NCBI GenBank assembly: GCA_024762335.1
Contig: JANTHO010000002.1
Location: forward strand, 5,766 to 69,765
DNA length: 64,000 nucleotides
Direction of reading: 5' to 3'
From: Acidimicrobiia bacterium
Lineage (GTDB): Bacteria > Actinomycetota > Acidimicrobiia > Spongiisociales > UBA5794
Made by a program: the position numbers and the translations under genes. This document shows, in pieces, positions 2,425 through 50,610 of the stretch (position 1 is its first letter; every line of letters starts with the position of its first letter). A model generated the notes under the pieces. The model was given only the letters and a program-made list of their open reading frames with translations. It did not search any database and was not told where the DNA came from.

Positions 2425-4372
<1,948 letters not shown>

Positions 4373-5956: not shown

Positions 5957-5960
5957 ACAC

Positions 5961-6085
5961 GCGTACGAACCCAGGGCTCGCAGGTGCTATTGAGTGCTTT
6001 TCCGGCGCACGGTTCAGAATCGCCTTCTGAACTCTGAGTTAGAAAAGCACCTATACGCGCGTACGAGCCCTGGGTTCGCAGGGCA
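5961..6085. repeat. REP-like intergenic element: two inverted copies of the CGAGCCCTGGGTTCG imperfect palindrome with AGCACCTATACGC flanks
   Basis: 5963-5985 reads cgtacgaacccagggctcgcagg. 6047-6085 reads gcacctatacgcgcgtacgagccctgggttcgcagggcac. Copies are related by inversion around about 6020 and lie between the divergent GNAT and GH13 genes. The same motif occurs at 10486-10510 and 27247-27290. Confidence 0.6.
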
Positions 6086-6102
6086 CATGGCAGAATGGGG
6101 TC

Positions 6103-27246: not shown

Positions 27247-27290
27247 GGAGAAGCACCTATACGCACCTGCGAGCCCTGGGTTCGCAGAGC
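27247..27290. repeat. REP-like element copy (GAAGCACCTATACGCACCTGCGAGCCCTGGGTTCGCAGAGCAC)
   Basis: Near-identical to 6044-6085. It sits in the divergent hyuA/nfu intergenic region, 20 nt upstream of the nfu ATG. Confidence 0.6.
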
Positions 27291-27309
27291 ACTAGGATCG
27301 GGGGACGAT

Positions 27310-31883: not shown

Positions 31884-32247
31884 CTTCTTCTCCCCTCGTT
31901 CTGTGAATCGTGATCCCCACGGATCGGGCATGCCGGAGCGCTCCCGGCTTCTCGACCGTCATCTCGACAGCAGCGACACGATCGTCGGATGCGAAGCACA
32001 TCTCGGCGAGTTCCGCGACAAGACGTTCGACGAGCATCGGCTCTCCCTCTTCGATGTGGGCGATGAGGCGCTTCGTGATCGTCCGGTAGTTGACGGCGTC
32101 GCCGATGTCGTCGCTGGCAGCAGCCGGTCGGGTGTCGGCCCACAGCGTCGCGTTGACGAGGATGTCCTGCCGGTTGATCCGTTCCTCCGGGTTGATCCCG
32201 AGAATCCCCGACACAACGAGATCCCGAATGTGTATCTCATCCAACAT
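31876..32247 (-). CDS. folB: dihydroneopterin aldolase
   Basis: Start at the ATG at 32247 ([23 protein letters not shown]…), typical FolB. The 285-aa track ORF is an upstream over-extension through the tandem repeat. Confidence 0.85.
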
Positions 32248-32248
32248 C

Positions 32249-32318
32249 TTGCCCCTTGCCTCTTGCCTCTTGCCTCTTGAATCTTGACTCTTGATTCTTG
32301 ACTCTTGACTCTTGCTTC
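32249..32318. repeat. heptanucleotide tandem repeat, about 10 units of TTGNCTC (TTGCCTC x3, TTGAATC, TTGACTC, TTGATTC, TTGACTC x2, TTGCTTC)
   Basis: Read directly. The repeat fills the whole interval between the SDR stop (32319) and the folB ATG (32247). On the mRNA strand it reads AGAGTCA…AGAGGCA AGAGGCA AGGGGCAAG-ATG. Confidence 0.8.
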
Positions 32319-33080
32319 TCACACCAGATGCCCTCCGCCGTCGACCCGGACGATCTCGCCGGTGATGAAGTCGTTCTCGAGGAGGGCGAGCGCCGCGGCA
32401 ACCACCGGATCGGTCCCGCCGACCCGTCCGAGCGGTAGATCCTCTGCGAGCCTCAGTGCGTAGTCGTCGTCCTCCGAGCCCGGCGGGAGGATGACGCCGA
32501 GAGCAACGGCGTTGACCCGGATCCTCGGGGCGAGTTGCAGCGCTGCGGTCCTCGTGAAGGTGTCGATGCCGCCTTTCGCGACGATGTAGCTGAAGTGCTC
32601 TCGATACGGCGCATGAGTACGGACGTCGGTGATGTTGACGACCGACCCGTCCAGGTCGTCCGGAAGCGCATCGGCAAACGCTTGGGTAGCGAACACGGGA
32701 GCGCCCAACGTCAGATCCAGCGTCGCTCTCCATGCATCGAGGTCCACGTTCCGGATCGTGTCCGACGGGAACCCGGATGCACTGTTTACGAGGATCGATG
32801 GGGATCCAAGCCGTTCGGTCGCCATCTTGACGAGTTCGGAGGCCGTCGACGGGTCGGAGAGATCGACCGAACCGACCGCGGCTCGCACACCGAGACGCCG
32901 CGCCATCTCCGCCGTCTCCCGGGCCGGCCCGTCCGAGCGGTTGTAGTGGATGAACACGTCGACGCCGGCCCGTGCCAGGCCGAGTGCAAGCGCTCGGCCG
33001 ACGCGAATGCCGCCGCCGGTGATGATTCCTGTTCGTCCGCGAAGCTCCATACCGGTGAGCGTAACCCGCGGAAGGCCCAT
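32319..33080 (-). CDS. SDR family NAD(P)-dependent oxidoreductase (possibly pteridine-related, given the folate-gene context)
   Basis: Rossmann motif TGIITGGGIRVGRALA and catalytic YxxxK (…YIVAKGG…). Alternative start at 33050. Confidence 0.75.
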   Translation of the reverse strand: MGLPRVTLTGMELRGRTGIITGGGIRVGRALALGLARAGVDVFIHYNRSDGPARETAEMARRLGVRAAVGSVDLSDPSTASELVKMATERLGSPSILVNSASGFPSDTIRNVDLDAWRATLDLTLGAPVFATQAFADALPDDLDGSVVNITDVRTHAPYREHFSYIVAKGGIDTFTRTAALQLAPRIRVNAVALGVILPPGSEDDDYALRLAEDLPLGRVGGTDPVVAAALALLENDFITGEIVRVDGGGHLV

Positions 33081-36819: not shown

Positions 36820-37149
36820 TCAGCCGCGTTTTCCGCAGGTGCAGGAGTGGCCGCTCTCGTTCGGGTTGTCGATCGCAAAGCCCGCGCCTGCGAGACCATC
36901 GTCCCGGAAGTCGATCGTTGACCCCATCAGCCGATCGACGCTCCGTTCGTCGATCACGACGTTGAACGCACCGGTCTCCACGACTGTGTCCGTCACAGAC
37001 GCACCGGTATCGAAGTGCAGGTCGTAGCGGAACCCGGAGCATCCTCCCGGCTTGGCACCGAGCCTGAGAACGAGAGTCTCATCCCCTTCGCCATCGAGCA
37101 GTTCCCGCACCTTGTTGATTGCTGAGTCGGTAAGCATCACCGGCGTCAT
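36820..37149 (-). CDS. HesB/IscA/ErpA family iron-sulfur cluster insertion protein
   Basis: Start at the ATG at 37149 after GGAGGAGG. C-terminal SGHSCTCG motif and GGCSGFRY. Confidence 0.8.
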   Translation of the reverse strand: MTPVMLTDSAINKVRELLDGEGDETLVLRLGAKPGGCSGFRYDLHFDTGASVTDTVVETGAFNVVIDERSVDRLMGSTIDFRDDGLAGAGFAIDNPNESGHSCTCGKRG

Positions 37150-37239
37150 TGCACATCGCCTCCTCCGCGCGTCGCACTGCAACTCTAACTCCTATCGCCG
37201 TGTTGGGAATAGGGAATCTCATTCGATAGCATCGGCCGG

Positions 37240-38376
37240 GTGACGAAACGAGCAGACATTGAGGCCGCTCTACGCGGAGTGATCGACCCCGAACTGAACG
37301 CGGACATCGTCGAACTCGGCATGGTGAGCGACATCAAGGTGGACGGTGCTCACGTCTCGATCGGCGTCGCCCTCACCGTGGCGGCGTGCCCGATGCGAAA
37401 CCAGATCGAGTCCGATGTGGTCCGGAAGGTCGCCGCGATCCCCGGGATCGATGACGTGACCGTCGACGTCACCGCGATGAACGCCGAACAACGGTCGGAA
37501 CTCATGAGCAAGGTTCGCCTGCGTGCCCGTGAGAACGCGACGCCGACGATGATCAGTCCACAGACCCGGGTCATCGCCGTCTCGAGTGGCAAGGGCGGCG
37601 TCGGCAAGTCGTCGCTCAGCGTCAATCTGGCGTTGGCCATCTCGGCGCTTGGACACCGAACGGGACTCCTCGATGCCGACATCTGGGGATTCTCGGTTCC
37701 GAGAATGCTCGCTTCGACAGATGCCCGTCTCGAAGCGGGCGAGAACCGCAAGATCCAGCCGCTCCAGGCGACCGGTCTGGAGATCGTCTCGACCGGGTTG
37801 CTCGTCGACGACGAGGACACGGCGCTCATGTGGCGGGGACTGATGCTCTCGAAAGCGCTCGAACAGTTCCTCACCGACGTGGCGTGGAGTCCGAATCTCG
37901 GATACCTCATCATCGACATGCCCCCCGGAACCGGTGACGTGCAGATGGCTCTGTCGCGCATGCTCCCGCAGGCCGAAATGGTCGTTGTGACCACGCCGCA
38001 GCGCGCCGCACAGAAGGTCGCGGCACGGGTCGCAGACATGGCCCGCAGGTCGCACATGCCGGTCGTCGGCGTCGTCGAGAACATGTCCGGTTTCACCACA
38101 GAGGACGGTCGCCACTACGACCTGTTCGGATCGGGAGGCGGCCTCGAACTGGCCGATCAGCTCGGCGTTCCCCTTCTCGGCCGGGTGCCCCTCGACCCCG
38201 GTGTCGTCAACGGCGGCGACGAGGGGCGGCCCGTCGTCACCGAGGATCCGAACGGCCCCGCCGGAACTGAGATCCGATCGATCGCCGCCCGTCTCACGGA
38301 ACTGATCCCCCCCGCCGCCGAAGACACCTGCACCGCCCGCATCGCCGTCCTGGCCGAACAACTCGAACACCTGTAG
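37240..38376 (+). CDS. Mrp/ApbC family Fe-S cluster carrier ATPase
   Basis: N-terminal DUF59-like region. P-loop AVSSGKGGVGKSSLSVNLA and CPMR motif. GTG start at 37240. Confidence 0.85.
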   Translation: MTKRADIEAALRGVIDPELNADIVELGMVSDIKVDGAHVSIGVALTVAACPMRNQIESDVVRKVAAIPGIDDVTVDVTAMNAEQRSELMSKVRLRARENATPTMISPQTRVIAVSSGKGGVGKSSLSVNLALAISALGHRTGLLDADIWGFSVPRMLASTDARLEAGENRKIQPLQATGLEIVSTGLLVDDEDTALMWRGLMLSKALEQFLTDVAWSPNLGYLIIDMPPGTGDVQMALSRMLPQAEMVVVTTPQRAAQKVAARVADMARRSHMPVVGVVENMSGFTTEDGRHYDLFGSGGGLELADQLGVPLLGRVPLDPGVVNGGDEGRPVVTEDPNGPAGTEIRSIAARLTELIPPAAEDTCTARIAVLAEQLEHL

Positions 38377-38379
38377 CCC

Positions 38380-38830
38380 CACCTGCAATCTCTTCGACTG
38401 CAACGCTTCACAGAAAAGGTGAGGGCGTGGACGGCGGCTTCGCGCACTCTCCCCCGGCCCGTAGGGCTGGGGGAGATGCCCGGAGGGCAGAGGGGGATGC
38501 GTGGAGCCCACGGATCGCAAGGGTGAGGTGATCCCGCTACTGAAGGCCCGTGTGTATCCGTGGAACCGCGCCCGGGCTGATCTCGGGATGGCACCTCCCC
38601 CCCACCCAGTTCGAGCAGAGCTCGAACGCGTCCCCCCATCGCTTCGCTCTGGTGGGACGTGAACTGGGGGTCGAACGCTCTTGTCGTCGAGAGTCCGTGG
38701 ATTCAGGCGCAGTGGGGGAGAATGGGAACCCGTTCGGTGCCTCAGAGAAACCACCGGTTCAGGCGAAGCGATGAAGATTGGAAAAGAGCGCTCTCACGAT
38801 CCCGGGCTCTTGGCTCTTGGCTCTTGACTC
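38380..38830. repeat. non-coding repeat island A, homologous and inverted relative to island B (47444-48112); ends in 3.5 units of the CTCTTGR heptamer
   Basis: The six-frame track shows overlapping ORFs in all frames; the strongest apparent protein-level similarity between the two islands, the PWIQAQWGR peptide motif, traces to a single shared DNA module. Shared modules: 38408-38430 matches the reverse complement of 48001-48025. The hairpin TCTCCCCC…GGGGGAGA followed by GATGCCCG(C/G)AGGGCAGAGGGGG is at 38448-38492 and at 47615-47666. CCGTGGATTCAGGCGCAGTGGGGGAGAATGG…GGTGCCTCAGAGAAACC is at 38693-38760 and at 47541-47600 (reverse complement). Heptamers GGCTCTT GGCTCTT GGCTCTT GACTCTT are at 38797-38828. 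Confidence 0.7.
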
Positions 38831-40156
38831 TTATCTACAGAGTTTGTCGACCATGGGGTAGGGGTTCGCCCAGTCGCCGCCGCCGGGCTTCCAGCCGAGA
38901 TGCAGATGGGGGAGCCAGGACGGAGCGTTGCCTGTCGTGCCGACCGTCCCGATCATGTCCCCGGCCGAGACTCGCTGTCCTCCTGCGAGCCCGTCGGCCC
39001 AGGAATCCATGTGGGCGTAGTAGTAGATGTCACCCGAGTTGCCCTGTAGGTACACCGAGATCCCACCGAGGGTGCTGTTCGACAGCCGGTAGATGCGTCC
39101 CGTCTCCATCGCGACGAGTGGCGTTCCTCGCGACGCCGACATGTCGACGCCTTTGTGTGTCCTGCCACCGGATCGGGGCGCTCCCCACGTATCGGAGAAC
39201 GAAACGGCACCGTCGACGGGACAGACCCGTCCGGCCGTTGAGACGGGAGGGGTCGTCGTGGTCGTCGTTGGTGCCACAGTGGTCGTGGTGGATGACGTGC
39301 TCGTCGTCGTCTCTTCGTCGGACGGCGGGGCGGTTGTCGTGGTCGGAGCCATCGTCGTCGATGTCGTGGTAGTCGTCGTGGAAGATGTCGTGGTTGTGGT
39401 TGGAGCAGCGGTCGTGGTCGTGGAGACAGTTGCCTTCGCAATCGTCGTGGTCGTCGACGTAGCCGCCACGGCTGCGGCAGCAGCGGCTGCAGCGGCGGCC
39501 TCCTCCCTCTTTCGCTCCGCCTCGAGTTTACGCTGTCGTTGCTCTTCGGCGAGGCGCCGGCGCTCGGCTTCCTGCCGCTCCCAGGTGGCCTGCATCTCCC
39601 GATATTCGGCGTTCGCAGCGTCGAGGTCGGTAAGGAGTTGAGCCGCGAGCCCCTCGATCTCGGTTACGAGTTCACGCTGTCGCGACAGTGCAGCGTCGAG
39701 GGTCTCAACCTGCTCGCGATACTCAGTCTCGACGGCCATCCATTCATCCACGATCTTGCGATCGTGGTCGCTTGCGGCCTCGAGATACGTGCCCCGAACA
39801 GGAATGTCGATGAAAGCGTTCGCTCCGAGCACCGCAGAGACGGCACCGTCGGAACCGGCGGTCATATAGAGCTCACGAACGACATCCTGAGCCGTCAGGC
39901 GAAGCACGGCGAGCCGTTGCTCGGTCTCGGTGACCCGAGTGGCGAGACCGTGAAGGCTCTCGCGAATCTGAATCTCCTCAGCGACCGCCGCTTCGTATTG
40001 CGCATCCGTTGCTTCGAGGCTCGCAGAGATCTCGGCGTTGCGTTGGCGCGCAGTTTCCAGATCCGCCTGGGTGACCTCGCGTTCTTCGACGGCGAACGCA
40101 GGCGCTGCCAAACCGAGGATCAGAACAAGAATGAGGGCGATTCGCATATCGATCAT
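38831..40156 (-). CDS. M23 family metallopeptidase with N-terminal coiled-coil and Thr/Ala-rich linker (secreted)
   Basis: Signal peptide MIDMRIALILVLILGLAAPAFA. Long coiled-coil region, then a poly-Thr linker. C-terminal M23 motifs HKGVDMSA…GNSGD…HLHLG. Confidence 0.85.
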   Translation of the reverse strand: MIDMRIALILVLILGLAAPAFAVEEREVTQADLETARQRNAEISASLEATDAQYEAAVAEEIQIRESLHGLATRVTETEQRLAVLRLTAQDVVRELYMTAGSDGAVSAVLGANAFIDIPVRGTYLEAASDHDRKIVDEWMAVETEYREQVETLDAALSRQRELVTEIEGLAAQLLTDLDAANAEYREMQATWERQEAERRRLAEEQRQRKLEAERKREEAAAAAAAAAAVAATSTTTTIAKATVSTTTTAAPTTTTTSSTTTTTTSTTMAPTTTTAPPSDEETTTSTSSTTTTVAPTTTTTTPPVSTAGRVCPVDGAVSFSDTWGAPRSGGRTHKGVDMSASRGTPLVAMETGRIYRLSNSTLGGISVYLQGNSGDIYYYAHMDSWADGLAGGQRVSAGDMIGTVGTTGNAPSWLPHLHLGWKPGGGDWANPYPMVDKLCR

Positions 40157-40935
40157 CTCGCGTTCAACTCGACCATCGTCGATGGCCCCACTGCGCCCGC
40201 CGGAAACCTTACTTGTCCATCGGCATACAGCTTGCGCATCTGAACGATGACCTGGTGGGTCGCGGCGTCACGCAACCCGGTTGGAACGAAGTCGTACACG
40301 GCGTCGACCACCTCCCCGACCGTCTTCGCGCCCGCCCGGATGGTGTCGAGGATCTCAGCCTCCCTGGCCACCCGGTGATCGATGTACCCGTCGATCACCG
40401 TGCCGGCATCGTCCATTGATGGGCCATGCCCCGGTTCGATGCGCCCCACGTTGAGATCCCGGATCCGGTACAGCGACTCCATGTATGCCGTGGCGTCCTC
40501 CATGACGACGGTCGATCCGCCCATGATGTGGTCACCCGTGAAGAGACGGTCTCCGAGACGGAAGCAGAGATGATCCGCCGTGTGTCCGGGTGTGTGGACC
40601 GCTGCGATGGCCACGGCACCGACGGCGACCGCATCCCCGTCGGCGAGACGCCTATCGGGATCGAACTCCGGACCCGGTTCGTATCCGTAGACCGGCACGT
40701 CGAGCCGTCTCGCGAGCGGGTTCGCGAGCGGAGCATGATCCGGATGCGTGTGGGTTGCGATCACGGCGACGGGGGATCGACCGGTGACGGCGCCGACGAT
40801 TGCCAGGAGATGGCTCTCGATGACCGGCCCGGGATCGATGACGGCCACCTCGCCGCCATCGGCCACCAGATATGTGTTGGTTCCCGGCCCCGTGTAGATG
40901 CCGGGATTCGGCGCGAGGATTCGCTCAATCATCAT
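40153..40935 (-). CDS. MBL-fold metallo-hydrolase
   Basis: HTHPDH motif (IATHTHPDHAPL) and …TPGHTADH…. The ATG at 40935 overlaps the NUDIX stop (ATGA); the stop overlaps the M23 start. Confidence 0.8.
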   Translation of the reverse strand: MMIERILAPNPGIYTGPGTNTYLVADGGEVAVIDPGPVIESHLLAIVGAVTGRSPVAVIATHTHPDHAPLANPLARRLDVPVYGYEPGPEFDPDRRLADGDAVAVGAVAIAAVHTPGHTADHLCFRLGDRLFTGDHIMGGSTVVMEDATAYMESLYRIRDLNVGRIEPGHGPSMDDAGTVIDGYIDHRVAREAEILDTIRAGAKTVGEVVDAVYDFVPTGLRDAATHQVIVQMRKLYADGQVRFPAGAVGPSTMVELNAR

Positions 40936-41711
40936 GTCGGTCGGAAGTCCGGGGGAACGTCGCCACCGGCCGAGACGACTTCCATGATTTTGGCCATGAG
41001 ACCGGGATCCCGTTCGGCCGCGCCCGCCGACTCGAAGCCATCGTCGCCCGGGATCAAGATCAGGATCCTCCTGCCGTTCACGGAGAGTCTCGGCTGGATC
41101 GTCCGGACCGGACCCGCGCCCTCGATGTGTTCGATCACATCGCGCACCGACCGATGGGATGCGAAGAACTCCACCGTCTTCAGCGTCGGGAACGCCACGA
41201 CCCATGTTCCGGTGGCCGATCGCTCGAGCGCCTCGCGAGGTTGAACCCACGCGCCGTCGACGAGTTCGCAGCCGTCGACGATCGGATCGACTCCGGCCGG
41301 TGTCGGCGCCACGAAGAACTTCGTATCGAACCGGATCGGCAACGGGGCGGGCGTGATCCATCGGGCGAAGAACCGGAGCGAGTCGCCGTCGAACCGGTCA
41401 CCGAATCCGTCGACGCTCGTGAACACCTCGGATCCGGACGGCCGCTCGGCGGTGGCTCTCGGTCCGGACCGCAGGAGCCAGATGCCGGTCTCTTCGACGA
41501 GTTCCCGCACGGCCGCGGCCTGCCATGGATCGAGTCGGCTTTCCGTTGATTGGACATGTGCATCCGATTCGTCGACGGAGCCGCCGGGGAACACCCAGGC
41601 TCCCCCCATGAACCGGGCTTGGGGCGTTCTGCGCACCATGAGGACTTCGACGCCGGCGACGCCGTCACGGATCAGGCACACCGTCGAGGCGTCCCGTGCC
41701 GGGGCACTCAC
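40932..41711 (-). CDS. NUDIX hydrolase
   Basis: Nudix box …GGSVDESDAHVQSTESRLDPWQAAAVRELVEETGI…. The GTG at 41711 overlaps the fxsA stop (GTGA). Confidence 0.75.
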   Translation of the reverse strand: MSAPARDASTVCLIRDGVAGVEVLMVRRTPQARFMGGAWVFPGGSVDESDAHVQSTESRLDPWQAAAVRELVEETGIWLLRSGPRATAERPSGSEVFTSVDGFGDRFDGDSLRFFARWITPAPLPIRFDTKFFVAPTPAGVDPIVDGCELVDGAWVQPREALERSATGTWVVAFPTLKTVEFFASHRSVRDVIEHIEGAGPVRTIQPRLSVNGRRILILIPGDDGFESAGAAERDPGLMAKIMEVVSAGGDVPPDFRPT

Positions 41712-42088
41712 GGCACGATCGTCCAACGATTCGCCGAGCGGGCAACGACCCACCTGCGAATCGTCTCACGGACCGCGGGAATCAGGAGGAGGAACCCGGT
41801 CGCATCGGTGAGAAGGCCCGGCGTGAGGAGGAAGGCGCCTGCGATGAGGATCATCGCACCGTGGGCGAGCGAGACACCGGGGAACACTCCCTGGGAGAAG
41901 TCCCGGCGTACCGCGAGATACGTCTCGCGGCCCTGACGGGAAACAAGCCACGATCCGAGAAATGCCGTCGTGACAACGAGCGCGATGGTCCACCAGATTC
42001 CGACGACCCGGCTGAACGACACGAGGAGCGCGATCTCGACGATCGGGACGACGAGAAAGGCGCCGAAGAGGATCCACCGGTATCGCAT
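41708..42088 (-). CDS. fxsA: FxsA family cytoplasmic membrane protein
   Basis: MRYRWILFGAFLVVPIVEIALLVSFSRVVG… is a typical FxsA N-terminus. Start at the ATG at 42088; the track start is a GTG at 42163. Confidence 0.65.
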   Translation of the reverse strand: MRYRWILFGAFLVVPIVEIALLVSFSRVVGIWWTIALVVTTAFLGSWLVSRQGRETYLAVRRDFSQGVFPGVSLAHGAMILIAGAFLLTPGLLTDATGFLLLIPAVRETIRRWVVARSANRWTIVP

Positions 42089-42123
42089 CTGACCGAGGAT
42101 ACCGGTGCCGGTAGTCTGGGTAC

Positions 42124-43440
42124 ATGGACCTTCGTGACCTCCCATCGGTCGACGCCCTGGCACTCGACCTTGCAGAAGAGTTCACCGCACCCCGCGTCCT
42201 GCTCAACGCGGTGGCGCGGGATGCGATCGAGGACGCCCGGACGTCCCTGCGCTCCGGGCGGCTGGCAGATCCCACACACGAAGCGTTCCGACGCATGTCC
42301 GCACTGGACTCTGCCCGTCTCCGCAACGTCGTCAACGCCACAGGGGTGCTCCTCCACACCAACCTCGGACGGGCCCCGCTCGTGGCAGCACCGGTGCCGC
42401 TCTACGGCAACCTCGAGTTCGATCTCCGAACGGGTGAGCGAGGCAAACGGGGCGGGTATCTGAGAGAACTCGTCGCGGCGACCGTGGGAGCCGAGGCGGC
42501 GCTCGTCGTGAACAACAACGCGGGCGCACTGCTCCTGGCACTCGCGGCCATCGCCGGCCGTGACGGCAGGGTCGCCGTCTCCCGCGGCGAATTGATCGAG
42601 ATCGGAGGATCGTTCCGACTTCCGGATCTGATGGCCGCGTCCGGGGCTCACCTCGTCGAGGTCGGGACGACGAACCGGACCCGCGAGTCCGACTATCTCC
42701 AAGCCCCGGGGACGATCGAAGCCGTCCTCAAGGTTCACCCGTCGAACTACCGGGTCGAGGGATTCACCGAGGAGGTTCCGTTTGCGCGAATGCCGGCTGT
42801 GGCCGCGGCCGTCGGGGCGCCATGCATCGCCGACGTCGGCAGCGGCCTCATCGATGTCGACACCCCGTGGATCGCCGACGGCCCGCCCTCCTGGCTCGCA
42901 GGCGAGCCGGGCGTCCGGCAGACCCTCTCCCAAGGAGCGGACGTCGTTCTCTTCTCTGGCGACAAACTCCTCGGAGGTCCGCAGGCGGGCATCGCCGTCG
43001 GCAACCGGGACATGATCGACCGCATGGCACGCCACCCGATCGCGAGAGCGGTCCGGATCAACACTCCGACGATCATCGATCTCACGGACACGTTCGAGGC
43101 GTACGCCGAGAACCGGGCATCGTCGCTCCCGTTCTGGATGATGGCGACCGCTCCCCCGGGCGAGATCGAACGACGCACCAGAGCCGTGATCGACGCTTCG
43201 GGTGTCACCGGTTCGATCGTCGAAGGCCGTTCGCTCCCGGGAGCCGGATCGGTACCGGGGCTGACGATTCCAACACCCGTCCTTCGCATCGAAGGAGCCG
43301 GCGAGCGGGTGTGGACGACCCTCGCGGCGCACGATCCACCCGTTCTCGCGACGCGTCGCGACGGAGGGACGATCGTGAACCTGCGATCCGTCCTCCCGGG
43401 AGACGACGCCGTCGTCGCGTCCGCACTCGCGGGGGTCTGA
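42124..43440 (+). CDS. selA: L-seryl-tRNA(Sec) selenium transferase
   Basis: SelA motifs: RNVVNATGVLLHTNLGRAPL, PLP-lysine region FSGDKLLGGPQAG, and EIGGSFRLPD. Confidence 0.85.
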   Translation: MDLRDLPSVDALALDLAEEFTAPRVLLNAVARDAIEDARTSLRSGRLADPTHEAFRRMSALDSARLRNVVNATGVLLHTNLGRAPLVAAPVPLYGNLEFDLRTGERGKRGGYLRELVAATVGAEAALVVNNNAGALLLALAAIAGRDGRVAVSRGELIEIGGSFRLPDLMAASGAHLVEVGTTNRTRESDYLQAPGTIEAVLKVHPSNYRVEGFTEEVPFARMPAVAAAVGAPCIADVGSGLIDVDTPWIADGPPSWLAGEPGVRQTLSQGADVVLFSGDKLLGGPQAGIAVGNRDMIDRMARHPIARAVRINTPTIIDLTDTFEAYAENRASSLPFWMMATAPPGEIERRTRAVIDASGVTGSIVEGRSLPGAGSVPGLTIPTPVLRIEGAGERVWTTLAAHDPPVLATRRDGGTIVNLRSVLPGDDAVVASALAGV

Positions 43441-45248
43441 TGCCGATCATCGGAACCGCAGGGCACGTCGATCATGGAAAGTCCACCCTGGTTCAGGCAC
43501 TCACCGGACGCGACCCGGATCGTTGGGCGGAGGAGAAGGACCGGGGGCTGACCATCGACCTCGGGTTCGCTTGGGCCGACCTCGCCGATACGGCGGTCGG
43601 GTTCGTCGACGTTCCCGGCCATGAACGGTTCATCAAGAACATGCTCGCCGGTGTCGGCGGTTTCGACGTTGCCCTGTTCGTTGTCGCAGCCGACGAGGGC
43701 TGGATGCCCCAGTCGGAAGAGCATCTCGCCATTCTCGATCTGCTCGACGTGCGCCACGGTGTCATCGCTCTCACGCGAGTCGATCTCGCCGATCCCGACC
43801 TCATCGAGCTCTCGACCGCCGAGGTCGTCGAGCACGTGGAGGGGACGGTTGCCGCATCGTGGCCCATCGTCGAAGTATCGCCTCCGACCGGTGAGGGCAT
43901 GGACCGGATCGTCGCTGCGCTGAACGCGGCACTCGACACCGCCGGTCCCACGGCAAATCTCGGTCGCCCCCACATGTGGGTCGATCGGGCGTTCACGATC
44001 TCCGGTGCCGGTGTCGTGGTGACCGGTACGCTCACCGGCGGCTCGATCTCCATCGGGGACCGCATGGAGTGTTACCCGGGTGGAGAGGTTCGGATCAGGG
44101 GACTTCAATCTCATGAGATTCCGCGCGACACCATCGGGCCGGGATCGCGTGTCGCGGCGAACATCGTCGGAATCGACCGCGGAAACGTCGGACGCGGCAC
44201 GTTGATGGCGCTGCCCGGCTCTGCCGGCATGACCAAACGATTCCTTGCCCTCTTGCACCGGCCACCTCGCACCGATGCCGAGATCACGGACCGTGGTGCC
44301 TATCACGTGCATCTGGGAACCGCAACGGTCCCCGCCCGGATCAGGGTCCTCGATGAGGGTGACGAGCCCGGCGTAATCGTGACGACCAACGCCCCCGTTC
44401 CGGTGACGATGGGGGATCGATTCATCCTCCGTGACACCGGTCCGAAGGAAGTCGTCGGAGGCGGGGTCGTGCTCGATCCGTCGCCGGTCCGCCGCCCCAC
44501 CGAGCAACACATCACCGAATTGTCTCAGGCGATCGCGCTCGATCCGGTAGGACGTGCCGATGCCCTCGTGGCCGTTCACGGCGAGATCGACGCCGACGAA
44601 GTGAGCCGGTCCAGCGGCGGCGGCACGCCTTCCGTCGCGATCTCTGCAGGGACGAGGTTCTACTCACCCGGGGCGTTCTCCATGCGCGGAGACGCCCTGC
44701 TCGACGCCGTCAACGACTACCACGAACGATTCCCACTCCGACCCGGTCTTCCCCGTTCGGAAGCAGCGTCCCGACTCGGGGCGGATGCGGATCTCGTTGC
44801 TGCACTCGTTGCCGCCGAACCCGGCCTCGTGGAGGAAGGCCCGATCCTTCGCCGTGTCGAGTTCGTCCCCGCGCTGAGCGAGGCCGACGAGGAGATCTGG
44901 AAACGGGATCGAGCGGTACTCGGCGCCAGCCTCGCCGTTCCCCGAGTTTCCGATCTCTCCATCTCCGACGAGGTTCTCCATGCGCTCATCAGGCGGGGCG
45001 ATCTCGTCCGGGTCGCAAACGACCTCGTGTTCCTCCCGGAGCAGATGGCTGAAATCAAGGACCGGCTCGGGGCGCTTCCCGACGAGTTCACGGTGGCGAT
45101 GTTCCGCGACGGTCTCGGCGTTTCACGACGTCAGGCCGTCCCCCTCCTCGAGTGGCTCGACGCTGCGGGTTGGACGCGTCGCCGGGGCGACGTGCGTTCG
45201 GTCAGATCCTCGAACGGGCCTTCTGCTGGCGACGCTCCGTCTCGGTGA
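43440..45248 (+). CDS. selB: selenocysteine-specific translation elongation factor
   Basis: GTP-binding N-terminus IIGTAGHVDHGKSTLVQALTG…DVPGHERF, followed by a long C-terminal extension with winged-helix-like domains. The ATG overlaps the selA stop (TGATG). Confidence 0.85.
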   Translation: MPIIGTAGHVDHGKSTLVQALTGRDPDRWAEEKDRGLTIDLGFAWADLADTAVGFVDVPGHERFIKNMLAGVGGFDVALFVVAADEGWMPQSEEHLAILDLLDVRHGVIALTRVDLADPDLIELSTAEVVEHVEGTVAASWPIVEVSPPTGEGMDRIVAALNAALDTAGPTANLGRPHMWVDRAFTISGAGVVVTGTLTGGSISIGDRMECYPGGEVRIRGLQSHEIPRDTIGPGSRVAANIVGIDRGNVGRGTLMALPGSAGMTKRFLALLHRPPRTDAEITDRGAYHVHLGTATVPARIRVLDEGDEPGVIVTTNAPVPVTMGDRFILRDTGPKEVVGGGVVLDPSPVRRPTEQHITELSQAIALDPVGRADALVAVHGEIDADEVSRSSGGGTPSVAISAGTRFYSPGAFSMRGDALLDAVNDYHERFPLRPGLPRSEAASRLGADADLVAALVAAEPGLVEEGPILRRVEFVPALSEADEEIWKRDRAVLGASLAVPRVSDLSISDEVLHALIRRGDLVRVANDLVFLPEQMAEIKDRLGALPDEFTVAMFRDGLGVSRRQAVPLLEWLDAAGWTRRRGDVRSVRSSNGPSAGDAPSR

Positions 45249-45462
45249 GTCCGCCCCAGATCCCGTAGGGCTCCCGAATCGTCATGGCATAGGTGAGGCA
45301 TTCGGTTCCGACGGGGCAGCTCCGACAGATCGCTTTCGCCCTGACTTCTCTTCGTTCCCGCTCTTCCTTCCTCTCGGTCGTGCTCGGCGGGAAGAAAAGG
45401 TATGAGTGACTTCCGCTACACGAGGCAACCGGTTGCCAGGATCGATCGAGCGCCATCACCAT
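45202..45462 (-). CDS. WhiB family transcriptional regulator (Fe-S)
   Basis: 86 aa starting at the ATG at 45462, preceded by GGAGG with a 5-nt spacer. Four Cys (C…CRSCPV…EC) and the EPYGIWGGLTETERR signature. Convergent with the selB 3' end, overlapping it by 47 nt. Confidence 0.75.
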   Translation of the reverse strand: MVMALDRSWQPVASCSGSHSYLFFPPSTTERKEERERREVRAKAICRSCPVGTECLTYAMTIREPYGIWGGLTETERRQQKARSRI

Positions 45463-45681
45463 TACTGCCTCCAACTCGTCAGATTTCCAAGCCGGTGAGA
45501 ATGTAGAGTCCTGCGCTCCGGATTACCAGGAAAATTATGGCATCACCACGGGGTTTTTTTCCGTTTGTTTTCGCGACCTCACGGGGTCTCCGAAGCGCCG
45601 TTCAGTCGGACATCACGGACGGCCCCGATATCGAACCGTTCGGCGACTCCAGACATCGGCCCACCGACTACCCTTCCGCTC

Positions 45682-46038
45682 ATGTCACGCGTACTGATCG
45701 TCGCCGATGAACCGTGGGTGGTGAACGAAGTTCACGCCGCGCTCAGCATCGGGGACAACGAACTCATCGACCATCCCGATCCGGCTACGGTCGCGGACGC
45801 AGTCCTCGCAGAAGACTTCGACGTTGCCGTTGTCGATCTCCAGGTTGCGTCGATGGGTGGGATCGCCGTGACCCACTCCATTCGCAACACGGAGGCATCC
45901 GTGCCGGTCGTCCTTCTCCTCGACCGCGAGGCTGATACGTTCCTCGCAGGCCGGGCCGGAGCGAGCGCGTGGGTGACGAAGCCGTTCTCAGCCTCGGCGC
46001 TCCGGGCGGCAATCGCGGACGTCACCGGAGCGGTGTGA
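45682..46038 (+). CDS. response regulator receiver-domain protein (standalone REC)
   Basis: MSRVLIVADEPWVVNEVHAALS…VVDLQV…, CheY-like. No output domain. Confidence 0.6.
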   Translation: MSRVLIVADEPWVVNEVHAALSIGDNELIDHPDPATVADAVLAEDFDVAVVDLQVASMGGIAVTHSIRNTEASVPVVLLLDREADTFLAGRAGASAWVTKPFSASALRAAIADVTGAV

Positions 46039-46084
46039 CGGACCGTTCGGAACCTCCGAGTACATGGGCCGCCGGTGAGCGGCC

Positions 46085-47332
46085 ATGACGTATGCGTATG
46101 TGATCTACATCGCCATCCTCGCCGCCTGCACGGTCGCTTCCGGGTTCTTCTCCGGCTCCGAAACGGCCCTCATCGGAATCTCGAAGGAACGGGTTCATCG
46201 GCTCGCCGCCGAGAACAAGCGCGGCCGTCGCGTCGAGCAACTCGTCGCAGATCCGGAGCGGATGCTGTCGACACTCCTCGTCGCAAACAACATCGTCAAC
46301 GTGCTGGCCGCCGCCGTCGCCACCACACTGTTCATCAGCCTCGTCGGAGAACAGTGGGGACCGTGGCTCGCAACGCTCGTCGTCACCGCGGTGATCCTCG
46401 TCTTCGGTGAGATCACCCCCAAGACGCTCGCCACCCGGTACCCGGAACGTTTCGCCCTGTCCGTGGCTCCTGCCATCTGGCAGCTCTCCCGGTTCCTCGC
46501 ACCCGTCGCGACGTTCTTCCGTTCGATCACGAGAGGGCTCCTCCGGCTGTTCCGTGTTCCGGTCGAGGGTGACTCGACGGCCGTGACCGATGCCGACATT
46601 CGTGCGCTCGCCGAACTCGGCCACCGTGACGGGCAGATCGAGAGGGTGGAACGGGAGATCATCGACGCCCTCTTCGATCTCGCCGACCGACCCGTGCGCG
46701 ACGTCATGACACCGCGGGTCGACATCGTGGCGCTCACCGATCCCGTGTCGCTGGACGACGTCAGAATGGCCGTCGCCGCAACCGGCCATTCCCGGTACCC
46801 GGTGACGCGCGGAGATCTCGACGATCTCGTTGGGATGCTCTTCGTCAAGGATCTCCTCCAGCGCTCCGGAGAGGCAACCCCGGAGGACATTGCGGCGCTC
46901 GTCCACCACCCGGAGTACATCCCCGAGACCGCAACGATCCTCGATGCGCTCACGGAGATGCGCCAGCGCAAGTATGCGATCGCCTGCGTCGTCGACGAGC
47001 ACGGCGGCATTGAAGGTGTGATCACGGCAAAGGATCTCCTCTCCGAACTCGTCGGGGAGATCCAGGATGAGTACGACCCGGGAGTCCCCTCCGTCGTTCG
47101 CATCGGGCCGCGCCGGTGGATCGCCGAGGGCCGTGTTCCCATCGAGGACCTCGAGGCCGAAATCGAACAGGATCTGCCGGAGGGCCCCTACAGCACCGTC
47201 GCCGGTCTCTTCATGGCCGAGGCGGGTCGCGTGCCGGCCGTCGGCGACGTCACCGACATCGGGTCAATCCGGTTGACGGTGCTCGAGATGGATCGGAATC
47301 GGATCGATCGAATCGAAGTTCTGCTGGCGTAG
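46085..47332 (+). CDS. CNNM/CorC-family transporter (DUF21-CBS pair-CorC_HlyC), 'hemolysin family protein'
   Basis: N-terminal TM/DUF21 region (FFSGSETALIG), CBS pairs, and a C-terminal CorC/HlyC domain (…DEHGGIEGVITAKDLL…IRLTVLEMDRNRIDRIEV). Confidence 0.85.
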   Translation: MTYAYVIYIAILAACTVASGFFSGSETALIGISKERVHRLAAENKRGRRVEQLVADPERMLSTLLVANNIVNVLAAAVATTLFISLVGEQWGPWLATLVVTAVILVFGEITPKTLATRYPERFALSVAPAIWQLSRFLAPVATFFRSITRGLLRLFRVPVEGDSTAVTDADIRALAELGHRDGQIERVEREIIDALFDLADRPVRDVMTPRVDIVALTDPVSLDDVRMAVAATGHSRYPVTRGDLDDLVGMLFVKDLLQRSGEATPEDIAALVHHPEYIPETATILDALTEMRQRKYAIACVVDEHGGIEGVITAKDLLSELVGEIQDEYDPGVPSVVRIGPRRWIAEGRVPIEDLEAEIEQDLPEGPYSTVAGLFMAEAGRVPAVGDVTDIGSIRLTVLEMDRNRIDRIEVLLA

Positions 47333-47369
47333 GACGCCAGAGTCGAAACGGGGGTACAATCTTCGCATT

Positions 47370-47443
47370 CGGGACGTGGCGCAGCTTGGTAGCGCGCATC
47401 GTTCGGGACGATGAGGTCGCCGGTTCAAATCCGGCCGTCCCGA
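47370..47443 (+). tRNA. tRNA-Pro (anticodon CGG)
   Basis: Acceptor CGGGACG/CGTCCCG; anticodon stem CATCG/CGATG with loop TTCGGGA; T-arm GCCGGTTCAAATCCGGC; discriminator A. CCA is not encoded. Confidence 0.85.
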
Positions 47444-48112
47444 CTCATAGGAACCCCGCCCCCGGGCGGGGTTCCGTCATTCCAGGTGCAAGGGACACAG
47501 CGGATAGGGAACCGGAGGCAACTCTCCATATTCCCCCGGCGGCCCTTTCCGTCATTCTCCCCCACCGCCGAGCCTGAATCCACGGTTTCTCTGAGGCACC
47601 GGACCGCCTTCCATTCTCCCCCACCGCCGAGGTGGGGGAGATGCCCGCAGGGCAGAGGGGGCATCTCGGAGGCAGAAGAGCCATACCGAGACCGAATGCA
47701 GCTACGGGTCCCGCGGGAAGCCCCCTCTGCGATCGAGCAACAGCTCGATCGCGTCTCCCCCACTGCGCCTGAATCCATGGTCTCTCGTGGGGTGTGTGGC
47801 TGAGATGCCTTGTCGTACCTGCGATATCTGCGACTGCAGCGCTGCACGAACTGGGTGAATTCGGCGGCCACCTTGCATGCCACTCTTCCTCCCCCTCAGG
47901 GGGAGGAAGGGGACGGCTTGGTGGAATGGAGATTCGCGTTCCTCTCTCCGTCGCGAGGAACCGTGGATTCAGGCTGGCGTGGTGGAGACGAAGAACCATC
48001 CACACCCTCACCTCTTCTGTGAACCCCGACATCGACTGAAACGTCGGCCGGGACAGGGATTCCGTTCATCGGCCGGCGTGGAGCGATTCCGTCAGGTTCC
48101 GCCCCCCGGCAC
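47444..48112. repeat. non-coding repeat island B, immediately 3' of tRNA-Pro; hairpin-rich modular repeats homologous to island A
   Basis: It begins with the hairpin GAACCCCGCC-cccg-GGCGGGGTTC (47451-47474). It contains three copies of the GGATTCAGGC module, at about 47568, 47750 (reverse complement) and 47963. There is an 11-bp-stem hairpin TCTCCCCCACC-gccga-GGTGGGGGAGA (47615-47641) followed by GAGATGCC…GGCATCTC. There is a 12-bp palindrome CTTCCTCCCCCT-ca-AGGGGGAGGAAG (47885-47910). The track shows ORFs in every frame and both strands, all Arg/Gly/Pro-rich. Confidence 0.7.
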
Positions 48113-48144
48113 GTGAGCCTGTATCCCGGCCTACCCGGCACGAG

Positions 48145-48312
48145 ATCAACCGCCCTGCATGAAGTTGCGGCGGATGCGCTGTTCGGTGATCTCGGTCATC
48201 ATCTCGTCCTCGTGATCACGCCACTCGGACTGACGGCGAGAGTCGAGGGGGCGCCATGCTGCAAACGCGAGAACTGCAACGACGATCACCGATCCGACGA
48301 TGAATCCCAGCA
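48145..48312 (-). CDS. possible small membrane protein (55 aa, one TM), not in ORF track
   Basis: Manual translation: MLGFIVGSVIVVAVLAFAAWRPLDSRRQSEWRDHEDEMMTEITEQRIRRNFMQGG. GC3 is high and a GGGGG run sits 4 nt upstream of the ATG. The antisense track ORF 48113-48346 is the alternative reading. Confidence 0.35.
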
Positions 48313-48367
48313 TCTCGCCCCCGTTGGTGTCCTGAGGCGAGCGTAGTCCGCTGGACGACGGCGGTCG

Positions 48368-49402
48368 CTACCGATCGAGGAGGAGTTCGGCCAGTTGCAC
48401 CGTGTTCAGTGCCGCACCCTTGCGGAGGTTGTCGCCGACGGCCCAGAGGCTGATGCCGCCCGGATCACCGATCGTCTCGCGGATGCGTCCGACGAGCACA
48501 TCGTCGATCCCTGCGGAGTCGAGCGGCGTCGGGACATGATCGTCCGGCCACACCTGTGCCCCCGGAGCGTCGGCCAGGATCTCCTTCGCCTCCTGCCCGC
48601 TCATCGGGCGGTCGAAGAACATCGTCGCCGCGATGCCGTGACCGACCATGGTCGGGACACGCACACACGTCGGTTCGACCCGGATGTTCGGAGCGTCGAG
48701 GATCTTCCGCGTCTCGTGAACGAGTTTCCACTCCTCGTCGGTGTGCCCGGCCTCGGTGATCGCACCGGCCATCGGCAATACGTTGTATCCGATGGGCCGC
48801 TGGTAGAGATCGCCGCCGGGATCCTTCCAAACCCCGTGCTGCAATGCGTCACGATCGGTTCCCAGTTCGGCGATCTGGCGTTCGAGCGTATCCATGCCCT
48901 GCTGTCCAGACCCGGATGTGGCCTGGTACGACATGGCGACCATCCGGTCGATGCCTGCGGCCCGATGCAACGGTGCGATGGCCATCATCAGCGCCATCGT
49001 GGTGCAGTTGGGGTTGGCGATGATTCCCTTGTGGGATTCGATCGCCTCGTCGTTGACCTGGGCCACGACGAGCGGAACGTCCGGATCCCGCCGGAATGCC
49101 GACGAGTTGTCGATCACCGCAGCCCCCGCCTCGACGAACCGCGGGGCGTACTCCCTGGAGCGCCCGCCGCCCGCCGAGAAGATGGCGATGTCGATACCGG
49201 CCGGATCCGCTTCGGCCAGGTTCTCGATCGTGACCGAACCCCACGGCGTGTCGACAACACTTCCCGCGGATCGCTCGGATGCGAGAAGACGGAGGTGTTC
49301 GACGGGGAAGTCGCGTTCGGCGAGGATCGACTGGATCGTGCGTCCGACCGCGCCGGTTGCGCCTACGACTCCGACGGTGGGTTGAGCAATCTTCTTCATC
49401 AT
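48368..49402 (-). CDS. asd: aspartate-semialdehyde dehydrogenase
   Basis: Start at the ATG at 49402 ([20 protein letters not shown]…), overlapping the lysC stop (ATGA). Catalytic NPNCTTM motif. The 508-aa track ORF is an upstream run-through. Confidence 0.9.
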
Positions 49403-50610
49403 TTCTCTCCGATCAGGCTCGCGTGGAGTGCCTCGACCGCGGCCTGGGTGTCGTCGCCACGCACGATGCAGCTGATGCGGATCGTGGAAGTCGAGATCAT
49501 CTCGATGTTCACTCCCGACTCGGACAGGATGCGGAACATCGTTGCCGCCACCCCGGACTCCGCCTTCATACCGGCGCCGACGACGCTGATCTTCGTGATG
49601 TCCGTGTCGAGATCGACACCGACCGCGCCGATCTCGTCGGCGATCCGCTCCGCTACGGCAACAGCCTCGAGCGCCGAGGCGGCCGGCACGGTGAACGAGA
49701 TATCGGTGACGCCGCGACTCGACACGTTCTGAACGATCATATCGACGTTGATGCCTGCGGAGGCCATCGGTTCGAAGACGGCGGCGGCGATGCCCGGCTG
49801 ATCCGGCACGCCGTACACGGTCAGTTTCGCTTCGGAGTCGTCGTGGGCGATGCCACGGATGACCGGTTCTTCCATCGTCTCCTCCTTGACCCACGTGCCT
49901 TCGCCGCCGTGGAACGACGACCGGACGTGGATGGGAATGTTGTAGCGGATGCCGAATTCGACACTCCTCGGCATGAGCACGCCGGCACCGGAGTTCGCCA
50001 GTTCCAGCATCTCTTCGAACGTCACCTCGTCGAGTTTGACGGCCGTGGGTACGACCCGGGGGTCGGCAGTGAAGACACCGTCGACGTCGGTGTAGATCTC
50101 GCAGAGGTCGGCTTCGAGCGATGCGGCGAGTGCCACGGCGGTGGCGTCCGATCCGCCGCGACCGAGTGTCGTCACGTCCTTCGAGTCGGGGCTGACGCCC
50201 TGGAATCCGGCGACGATTGCGACCTTTCCCTCATCCAGGCTCTCCCGGACACGGAATGCCCGGATGTCGAGGATCTCGGCCCGTCCATGGTCGGCGGTGG
50301 TGAGGATCCCGGCCTGAGATCCGGTGAAGCTGACGGCGGGGACGTCCTCTGCGCGGATCGCCATCGCTACGAGCGCCATCGAGATTCGTTCACCCGCCGT
50401 GAGCAGCATGTCCATCTCGCGGGGATGGGGAACCTCGGCGATCTCCGTTGCGAGAGAGATGAGAGCGTCGGTGGACTTGCCCATTGCCGACACGACCACG
50501 ACGACGTCGTTGCCCGCGCGGTAGGTTTCGACGACCCGATGGGCGACCCTGCGGATGCGGTCGGCGTCGGCGAGCGAGGTGCCTCCGAACTTCTGAACGA
50601 CGAGTGCCAT
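49399..50610 (-). CDS. lysC: aspartate kinase
   Basis: Start at the ATG at 50610 ([23 protein letters not shown]…), the canonical actinobacterial Ask N-terminus. ACT domains at the C-terminus. Confidence 0.9.

Follow-up and report, generated by a model that had tools for sequence, protein, structure and literature searches.

The 64,000-nt stretch analysed here (positions 5,766 to 69,765 of contig JANTHO010000002.1, assembly GCA_024762335.1, a bacterium of the class Acidimicrobiia), further referred to as the window, contains two gene-free islands, A and B, composed of the same short repeated modules. All coordinates below are window positions, and stretches fetched from other genomes and metagenomes are labelled L0xx. 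Island A occupies the spacer between the convergent 3′ ends of two genes recognized by Pfam, one for Mrp/ApbC-type ATPase (plus strand, ending at 38376) and the other for M23 peptidase (minus strand, ending at 38831). Island B lies between the tRNA-Pro gene on the plus strand and a conserved open reading frame (ORF) of 55 amino acids (aa) on the minus strand (48146-48313), which is followed by asd. The source is a metagenome-assembled genome, and both a WhiB gene and the names that close homologues bear at NCBI (‘Acidimicrobiia bacterium’, ‘Actinomycetota bacterium’) assign it to Acidimicrobiia. No credible gene was found by Pfam and homologue searches either in 47482-48145, the gene-free stretch at island B taken together with an ORF remnant described below, or in 38378-38837, so that the non-coding character ascribed to both regions in the first-pass annotation, made from the letters alone, stands. 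Nine ORFs traced within the islands gave zero matches to Pfam, and the longest of them (195 aa), searched against 5.8 billion proteins, retrieved nothing but its own entry in the database and one further ORF derived from repeats. Scanning of the whole window with Rfam at gathering scores detected tRNAs only, and the permissive scan of both islands (E <= 5) yielded, besides tRNAs, only chance matches far below threshold. A sigma-70-like promoter was sought in the region 37000-49500 and none was found, while terminator-like sites are no more numerous than expected from shuffled sequences. GC content of the islands equals that of their surroundings, and their folding as single-stranded DNA was compared with shuffles, giving z = -5.9 for island B and z = -2.3 for island A. 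The same annotation had delimited the repeat island at tRNA-Pro as 47444-48112; its repeat nature is retained, but its last ~60 nt and the sequence beyond (about 48080-48140) belong to a gene remnant.

The resemblance between the islands consists of at least five modules that recur in shuffled and inverted order, far beyond chance, just as had been proposed. Blastn and repeat search revealed inverted matches of 47572-47627 to 38764-38709 (56 nt, 82%, E 3e-10), of 47754-47787 to 38721-38688 (34 nt, 94%, E 3e-9) and of 47996-48023 to 38434-38407 (28 nt, 89%, E 2e-4), together with direct matches of 47612-47661 to 38445-38496 (52 nt, 83%, E 1e-8) and of 47817-47847 to 38381-38411 (31 nt, 84%, E 3e-3). 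The pattern GGATTCAGGC-N3-7-GTGGGGGAGA occurs three times in the window and the 28-mer GGGGGAGATGCCCGSAGGGCAGAGGGGG twice, against 0.00 in shuffles in both cases, and blastn of the island sequences against the remaining part of the 64 kb gave no match except a heptamer array at 32247-32319. A block of about 60 nt, initially counted as three copies in island B and two in island A, is present in full once per island; the count is correct for its core GGATTCAGGC..GTGGGGGAGA in island B (three copies), and island A has one copy plus a degenerate one. One more candidate for a common module, CGAACTGGGTG, is matched weakly (20 nt, E 0.13). The building blocks (Table 1) include the T module of 27 nt, CCGTGGATTCAGGC-N3-6-GTGGGGGAGA, the long-hairpin unit GTGGGGGAGA-C-(10-bp stem, 4-nt loop)-AGAGGGGGC, the short-hairpin, or class-I, unit TCTCCCCC-loop-GGGGGAGA-(TGCCC-GSA-GGGCA)-GAGGGGG, and a further module CACAGAARAGGTGAGGGYGTGG. 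In their narrower limits the four T modules span 38695-38721 (+), 47556-47581 (-), 47754-47776 (-) and 47965-47988 (+). Across 11 copies the stem of the long hairpin is paired to 96.4%, with both sides changed in 4 of its 10 pairs, and the observed covariation was reached by 0 of 500 shuffles; in slid controls the pairing falls to 17-46%.

Table 1. Features of islands A and B and of the adjacent tRNA-Pro in window coordinates (hairpins are enclosed in parentheses).
Feature	Position	Strand	Basis and remarks
tRNA-Pro (CGG)	47370-47444	+	ARAGORN; Rfam tRNA, 65 bits; landmark beside island B, outside the repeats
Terminator-like hairpin of tRNA-Pro, GGAACCCCGCCC-CCG-GGCGGGGTTCC	47450-47475	+	Kept with small changes in L031, L034, L036 and L037, all without island
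Island B proper, mosaic of modules missing in congeners	47482-48079	.	Alignment breakpoints, fold z, no Pfam match on ORFs
T module, copy 1, CCGTGGATTCAGGC-TCGGCG-GTGGGGGAGAATG on minus strand	about 47553-47585	-	Pattern search, module maps
Class-I unit of island B	47615-47661	+	TCTCCCCC 47615-47622; GGGGGAGA 47634-47641; hairpin TGCCC-GCA-GGGCA 47642-47654; AGAGGGGG 47654-47661
T module, copy 2, fused to long-hairpin unit, GTGGGGGAGA-C-(GCGATCGAGC-TGTT-GCTCGATCGC)-AGAGGGGGC	47716-47790	-	nhmmer E 3e-20, alignment, covariation
Central palindrome P, CTTCCTCCCCC-TCA-GGGGGAGGAAG, class-IV-type arm pair	47878-47912	.	Self-inverted match 47885-47909, 96%
T module at right end of composite	about 47961-47988	+	Module maps
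Module CACAGAAGAGGTGAGGGTGTGG on minus strand, inverted copy of 38407-38434	47996-48023	-	blastn
Remnant of 3′ end of 132-aa ORF, intact in congeners	48080-48140	-	~50 nt; aligns with L031 11435-11486; 10-aa tblastn trace; gene tables of L031, L033, L037
Island A, mosaic of the modules of island B	38378-38837	.	460 nt; empty-site comparison, Pfam on flanking genes
Module CACAGAAAAGGTGAGGGCGTGG	38407-38434	+	blastn
Class-I unit of island A	38448-38496	+	TCTCCCCC 38448-38455; GGGGGAGA 38469-38476; hairpin TGCCC-GGA-GGGCA 38477-38489; AGAGGGGG 38489-38496
Degenerate long-hairpin unit, ATGGGGGGAC-GC-(GTTCGAGC-TCT-GCTCGAAC)-T-GGGTGGGGGGG	38596-38641	-	Looser tract scan; counterpart 47728-47765
T module of island A, CCGTGGATTCAGGC-GCA-GTGGGGGAGAATGG	about 38688-38724	+	Repeat match; pattern; nhmmer E 2e-5
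65-nt linker block, then degenerate second T module GGTTCAGGCGAAGCGATGAAGATTGG	38709-38790	+	Repeat match, blastn, reading; inverted counterpart of block 47563-47627
Heptamer array GGCTCTT x4, right edge of island A	38805-38832	+	TRF

The origin of the islands was addressed by comparison with orthologous regions from five related populations, fetched via homologues of a CNNM/CorC protein and having DNA identity to the window of about 85-88% (L031, L032, L033) or 75-82% (L036, L037, L034). The stretches L031-L037 are collinear with the window, and the alignments end exactly at the island borders, at 38377 and 47481, to restart at 38838 and 48146. The congeners have 97 nt (L032) or about 70 nt (L036) in place of island A, and in L032 this spacer consists of two heptamer arrays inverted relative to each other. 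At the position of island B only 81 nt separate the tRNA terminator from asd in L034, while L031 and L037 have about 50 nt and an ORF of 132 aa with a signal-peptide-like N-terminus. None of the island modules was detected in ~110 kb of these relatives. Since the sites are empty in collinear congeners, the islands are lineage-specific insertions, and the alignments show a gain in this lineage at two places where congeners have short spacers. The congeners that possess the 132-aa ORF also have a gene for alpha/beta hydrolase (300 aa) between tRNA-Pro and asd, which is missing from the window (48080-48367 versus L031 11398-13050); thus a gene has been lost directly beside island B. Comparison of the 3′ flank of tRNA-Pro in related genomes, suggested earlier as a check, thereby bore out the insertion, though not one of the attachment-site type at a tRNA gene. 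The strong hairpin after the tRNA had been taken for the start of island B and for a sign of an insertion hotspot; being present in all relatives, it is the tRNA’s own terminator, and the island starts at about 47482. Two independent short-read assemblies cover 38725-47441 and 44697-47441 of the window, with breaks within island A and at the tRNA 3′ terminus, and the repeats account for such fragmentation in short-read assemblies of this lineage. An assembly gap is seen in a congener as well, where a run of N in L031 (GCA_029935855.1, about 3010-3100) begins inside the heptamer array of the spacer equivalent to island A. The 55-aa ORF adjoining island B has a hydrophobic segment and gave no Pfam family above threshold; its DNA is 86% identical in congeners (L031 11851-12018), and it is absent from L034.

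Beyond the window, scans with the pattern of the T module gave nine loci in GTDB genomes, 19 loci in JGI metagenomes and a single match in viral contigs, while the chance expectation for the genome scan is, by our own estimate, about 5 (596 Gb x 2 strands x 5 gap lengths / 4^20). Further modules, the long-hairpin unit among them, were found in genome loci L006, L009 and L011, belonging to metagenome-assembled genomes (MAGs) of Acidimicrobiaceae, Actinomycetota and Acidimicrobiia, respectively, and in metagenome loci L012-L015, L018, L022 and L027-L030, fourteen loci being reported in all, with L010 containing the T core only. Nine of the 19 metagenomic loci were rejected as AT-rich chance matches, and the sole match in viral contigs is the contig of one of them (L024); archaeal, AT-rich and unrelated matches share nothing further with the islands. 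Dispersed copies adjoin unrelated genes (sugar transferase, FAD oxidoreductase, tRNA-Asn) and are mostly located between convergent ones. A third island with the same order of units and with the composite described below was recognized, via a spurious 209-aa ORF, on another NCBI contig of 74 kb. The T core is also packaged differently, as in L015 (2690-2830) and in L006 (1-240, the Acidimicrobiaceae MAG), where it belongs to a 128-nt unit present in tandem (63-107, 193-235). The first-pass suggestion of a MITE/REP-like family (miniature inverted-repeat transposable elements and repetitive extragenic palindromes, respectively) is thus supported by the modules being multi-copy, hairpin-forming, found in both orientations and at unrelated loci elsewhere, and missing from the orthologous spacers of congeners.

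The largest recurrent assembly is a composite of ~235 nt (47754-47988) bounded by T modules in opposite orientation, T(-) at 47754-47780 and T(+) at 47961-47988, with palindrome P in the center. In L028 the composite measures 238 nt (1262-1499) with 27-nt inverted ends, and the window is collinear with it at 47714-47783 and 47886-48009; in L013 it takes about 225 nt (2942-3166), and in L009 and L022 it is enlarged by an internal insertion. Conservation amounts to about 90% at the ends of the composite and, as compared between the window and L028, to about 72% in its interior. Palindrome P recurs in L009, L013, L014, L022, L027 and L028. In L027 (1020-1162) it is split at the axis (..GATTCCTCCCCCTCAGGGG|TGTATGGGCC..) by unrelated DNA, which would fit insertion of an insertion sequence (IS) into the palindrome, as is known for REPs. 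No IS was found in the loci examined that could be the parent of the composite’s ends, a search aimed at one not having been made.

Arrays of tandem repeats with a 7-nt period accompany the islands. They edge repeat islands and the empty spacers of congeners, often as two inverted arms around modules, and the modules of both the window and L009 are enclosed in this way. Other arrays of this type were noted in L032 (2687-2745), L009 (865-960 and 4086-4120/4222-4250), L013 (3240-3290), L012 (3100-3135) and L018 (470-500), with repeat units CTGCAAG, GGGTCTC, GAGTCTC, CTACGAG and GCTGGTA, while the array at 32247-32319 of the window (TCTTGCC/TCTTGAC x10) lies directly upstream of a minus-strand start codon.

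The class-I unit has a distribution of its own. When 51 nt of island B were used to query a plasmid collection, matches appeared at 603 places in 168 records of plasmids or megaplasmids (up to 94% over 33-35 nt), nearly all in Sinorhizobium, Rhizobium, Shinella, Ensifer and Phyllobacterium, that is, dominated by Rhizobiaceae, and several per replicon; the version on pSymB of S. meliloti is TCTCCCCCCTTGTGGGGGAGATGCCCGGCAGGGCAGAGGGGG. The T module, the long-hairpin unit and the ~235-nt composite were not found in the matches from the plasmid collection. The earlier statement that the modules could not be matched to a known family holds in part: the module TCTCCCCC...GGGGGAGATGCCCGSAGGGCAGAGGGGG matches a multi-copy repeat of Sinorhizobium and Rhizobium replicons at 94%. 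The exact purine-hairpin-purine core was also detected in 82 stretches of viral or prophage contigs of IMG/VR with GC content from 47% to 74%, and the pyrimidine arm (A/G)ATCTCCCCCC precedes it closely in nearly all of the 82, though it was outside the search pattern. Inverted pairing is frequent among these copies, the partners standing about 123-127 nt apart and their spacer being variable. The core of 28-29 nt is almost invariant across contigs and two phyla. A variant from IMG/VR contigs of lower GC content (47-57%; L044, L063, L064, L078, L086, L091, L106, L109 and L117) has a small hairpin also in the first loop: TTCTCCCC-AAAT-(hairpin)-TATTT-GGGGGAGA-TGCCC-GAA-GGGCA-GAGGGGG. S. meliloti carries rhizobial intergenic mosaic elements (RIMEs), Sm-repeats, AB/C palindromes and REPs, some of them transcribed and some serving as IS targets (PMC2573895, PMC2873474, PMC1525189), and REPs in general are IS targets and form clusters known as bacterial interspersed mosaic elements, BIMEs (PMC1525189, PMC3116915). 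Full-text search of the literature with the motif sequence gave no match.

Purine tracts flanking the inner hairpin of this unit are mirror images, being neither inverted nor direct repeats, and the first of them pairs by Watson-Crick rules with the upstream pyrimidine arm. Four classes of such tract triples were distinguished: class I, TCTCCCCC / GGGGGAGA / AGAGGGGG, in which all eight positions fit in both window units (38448-38496 and 47615-47661); class II, CCTCTCCC / GGGAGAGG / GGAGAGGG (L012, L022, L027, L028); class III, GTCCCCCC / GGGGGGAC / CAGGGGGG (L029, L015); and class IV, CCTCCCCC / GGGGGAGG / GGAGGGGG (L009, L022). The length of the G-run (5, 3, 6 and 5 in classes I-IV) and the non-G positions change jointly in all three tracts. 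Roughly estimated, chance alone would make all four classes obey the mirror rule with a probability of 1e-2 to 1e-3, offsets being allowed. A strict triplex parser (8/8 Watson-Crick, fixed offsets) recovered 3 units only, since one base belongs both to the hairpin and to the third tract, and the class assignments therefore rest on a looser scan and on reading. As far as can be read from the bases, the tracts are laid out as in a class II intrastrand purine-motif triplex: the triads would be C-G*G and T-A*A, with the third strand running antiparallel to the purine strand. Loop 1 comprises 11-13 nt in the window units, other copies having 3-18 nt, and loop 2 is a covarying hairpin of 13-24 nt. 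Known repeats of this class, BoxC/TM-ECO of E. coli, show the same order of tracts, adopt a triplex fold in vitro and are associated with unstable loci of the genome (Holder et al. 2015, PMC4666352). Since purine-motif triplexes are stated not to form in RNA (PMC4666352), the fold, if it matters, acts on DNA. Earlier surveys limited the loops to 1-6 nt (ITxF) or 0-10 nt (Hoyne et al.; PMC4666352), so that a hairpin-bridged class would have been missed by them.

Taken together, both islands are most probably mosaics similar to BIMEs and RIMEs, that is, pile-ups of repeats of REP and MITE type. The modules would have entered two short spacers, each flanked by convergent transcription units, probably through several nested insertions, having spread as DNA with the aid of a trans-acting enzyme encoded elsewhere. 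For the palindromic units the likeliest candidate would be a hairpin-recognizing transposase of HUH/RAYT (REP-associated tyrosine transposase) or IS200/IS605 type, and for the T-bounded composite a transposase binding to terminal inverted repeats may be considered. Modules presumably nest into one another wherever insertions are tolerated, chiefly in terminator regions and at the 3′ ends of convergent genes. Once inserted, their strong structures in single-stranded DNA or RNA may serve as terminators or stabilizers of 3′ ends, and the same structures may act as obstacles for replication and recombination, destabilizing the neighborhood. The class-I unit as single-stranded DNA could adopt a class II purine-motif triplex of 8 triads with the hairpin as the second loop. 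A more far-reaching idea, which we hold as speculative and rather unlikely, is that the core unit differs from an ordinary lineage-specific REP in being a near-invariant element common to Rhizobiaceae, Acidimicrobiia and organisms of lower GC content, which folds as a hairpin-bridged class II triplex under selection; a triplex so selected might then be the recognition structure of the mobilizing enzyme or a programmed barrier to replication or transcription.

Several observations weigh against this interpretation and its triplex component. Genes adjoining the islands, scanned against Pfam, include no transposase, RAYT or integrase, PF01797-type proteins not having been searched for elsewhere, and the flanks of five full copies of the composite, when read, show no matching direct repeats that could represent a target-site duplication. 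Mobility is accordingly inferred from the presence/absence pattern and dispersal. Similarity also persists beyond the T modules on both sides, as a CGCG-hairpin on one and C[GA]AAGAC on the other, without a sharp boundary, so that, in the absence of target-site duplication, the mobile unit is not sharply defined. The copy in L028 is located between divergent gene starts, at odds with the convergent-gene pattern, and the census of copies amounts to two islands in 64 kb and one on another contig. Concerning the triplex, its folding is a prediction, the tracts are of low complexity, and a G-quadruplex or a plain hairpin are alternatives in principle. The classes are only four, two of them related by a 2-nt shift, and a scan with the hairpin ATGCCCGGCAGGGCAG held fixed and flanks left free revealed almost no variation of the flanks (90 of 133 identical), so that it provides no independent test of covariation.

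Two of the competing explanations assign a function to the modules. That the islands encode one or several structured non-coding RNAs (a small RNA or a cis-regulatory element of a 3′ untranslated region, UTR), with the modules kept for the RNA fold, was among the options of the first-pass annotation and agrees with the covariation of the long hairpin, with the fact that island B folds far better than shuffles, with the position of both islands in 3′ regions of convergent genes, where 3′-UTR structures act, and with the detectable transcription of REP-type repeats in S. meliloti (PMC2873474). We consider it improbable all the same, since Rfam has no match even at E <= 5 and no sigma-70-like promoter was found in the region scanned; the modules occur in both orientations with an order shuffled within and between the islands, and such a bidirectional mosaic argues against an RNA although one hairpin covaries. 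Congeners that keep the flanking genes do without the islands, and the covariation of mirror repeats has no Watson-Crick reading in RNA, where purine-motif triplexes do not form (PMC4666352). In about the same degree it is hard to believe that the modules are host-selected DNA sites (protein-binding sites, bidirectional terminators or triplex barriers to replication or transcription) and not mobile DNA, and that the class-I unit was kept across phyla by function instead of transfer. The near-invariance of its 28-29-nt core in contigs of 47-74% GC from two phyla and the covariation of three tracts in the way demanded by a triplex would be expected in this case, and the congeners’ site of island A holds an inverted heptamer-array hairpin resembling a bidirectional terminator, as if some structure were wanted there. 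Close relatives, however, have no modules at the same sites, and copy number and arrangement vary freely, with units nesting into and truncating one another as selfish repeats do; moreover, function and mobility are compatible, which makes this explanation more a complement than a rival of the repeat mosaic.

The other two explanations regard the islands as debris. According to one of them, akin to an option raised at first sight, a genomic island or prophage once entered the genome at the tRNA-Pro 3′ terminus and left island B behind as its relic, island A being a secondary copy of the debris. Adjacency to a tRNA gene, variation of downstream gene content among congeners (the 132-aa ORF and the hydrolase) and the numerous viral or prophage contigs that contain the class-I unit are in line with it. 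The tRNA and its terminator hairpin are nonetheless intact and conserved, repeats of tRNA-Pro of >= 12 nt are lacking elsewhere in the window, and gene calls and Pfam revealed neither an integrase nor another mobile-element gene between the tRNA and asd. Island A has no tRNA nearby, related islands adjoin unrelated genes, GC content does not differ from the surroundings, and the only viral match of the T module is the AT-rich chance contig, all of which renders such a relic very improbable. Even less credit can be given to the islands as decayed protein-coding genes whose common modules are remnants of paralogues: relatives do have the 132-aa ORF at the position of island B, and a remnant of ~50 nt is recognizable at 48080-48140, but tblastn with the 132-aa protein and with the hydrolase found nothing further in the island, island ORFs have neither Pfam matches nor homologues, the modules are palindromic and present in both orientations, and the site of island A in congeners is a 70-97-nt spacer without a gene.

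Apart from the islands, another repeat without relation to them occurs three times in the window, at 5944-5988, 6042-6086 and 27248-27292, one copy being inverted; it reads AAGCACCTATACGC..GCGAGCCCTGGGTTCGCAG and includes the near-palindromic 15-mer CGAGCCCTGGGTTCG. The copies 6042-6086 and 27248-27292 are each followed by an ATG at a distance of up to about 20 nt, and the repeat looks like a common operator or promoter.

For practical purposes the islands should be masked as interspersed repeats and not mined for genes or small RNAs, and ORFs called across such islands in public records (proteins of 184 and 209 aa) are spurious. Mosaics of REP/BIME type have been described mainly in Proteobacteria, and to our knowledge they are undescribed in this phylum and class; the islands thus offer a documented case in uncultured Acidimicrobiia, with clean empty sites, recent gain and loss of a neighboring gene. 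The unusual aspect, judging from sequence comparison, is the near-invariant three-tract, hairpin-bridged unit common with Rhizobiaceae. If true, the triplex covariation would tie together REP-like repeats, non-B DNA and genome instability across phyla, and the class-I unit supplies a defined oligonucleotide of 45-50 nt for a direct test of this idea.

Among known systems, REPs and BIMEs are resembled in that short (20-40 nt) imperfect palindromes lie outside genes (38448-38496, 47615-47661 and 47720-47763, with the bordering gene ends at 38376/38831 and 47444/48146), in that palindromic units alternate with other motifs in both orientations (both islands, L009, L013, L022 and L028), and in their multi-copy nature, frequent location at the 3′ ends of genes and role as a cause of assembly breaks. 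They differ in that the bases in front of the units vary here, the purine arm of the T module begins with GTGG and no GTAG-like tag has a constant place, and in that the class-I unit consists of three tracts and an inner hairpin instead of a single palindrome. Similarity to REPINs is seen in contigs of Rhizobiaceae type, where class-I units are arranged in inverted pairs around a variable spacer; no RAYT of a REPIN-RAYT system was identified among the island-adjoining genes scanned. Populations of REPINs are described as lineage-specific and vertically inherited (10.1101/2022.05.22.493013, 10.1101/2021.07.10.451892), in contrast to the class-I core, which is common across phyla. Like MITEs, with the Correia elements of Neisseria as an example, the composite is non-coding, of ~235 nt, has imperfect terminal inverted repeats of ~27 nt, occurs at unrelated loci and is more conserved at the ends than in the interior; unlike MITEs it has no target-site duplication, and its conservation runs past the inverted ends. 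We know of no parent IS having the composite’s ends. With the class II repeats BoxC, TM-ECO and PIT (Hoyne and Maher 2000; Holder et al. 2015, PMC4666352) the class-I unit has in common the succession of pyrimidine tract, loop, complementary purine tract, loop and second purine tract suited for reverse Hoogsteen pairing, and with BoxC/TM-ECO also the G/C-rich, intergenic and multi-copy character, occasional palindromic pairs and vicinity to local rearrangements or deletions. The tract sequence of class I is different from that of TM-ECO (CCCTCNCCC-N3-6-GGGNGAGGG-N3-GGGNGAGGG), its stems would contain 8 triads instead of 9, and its second loop is a stable hairpin of 13-24 nt, beyond the 1-6 nt that ITxF allows for a loop. 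Finally, the islands share with the rhizobial RIMEs, annotated in S. meliloti (PMC2573895) and serving as targets of IS (PMC1525189), the organization of intergenic mosaics built of palindromic modules, the distinction being that the host here is actinobacterial and belongs to the class Acidimicrobiia.

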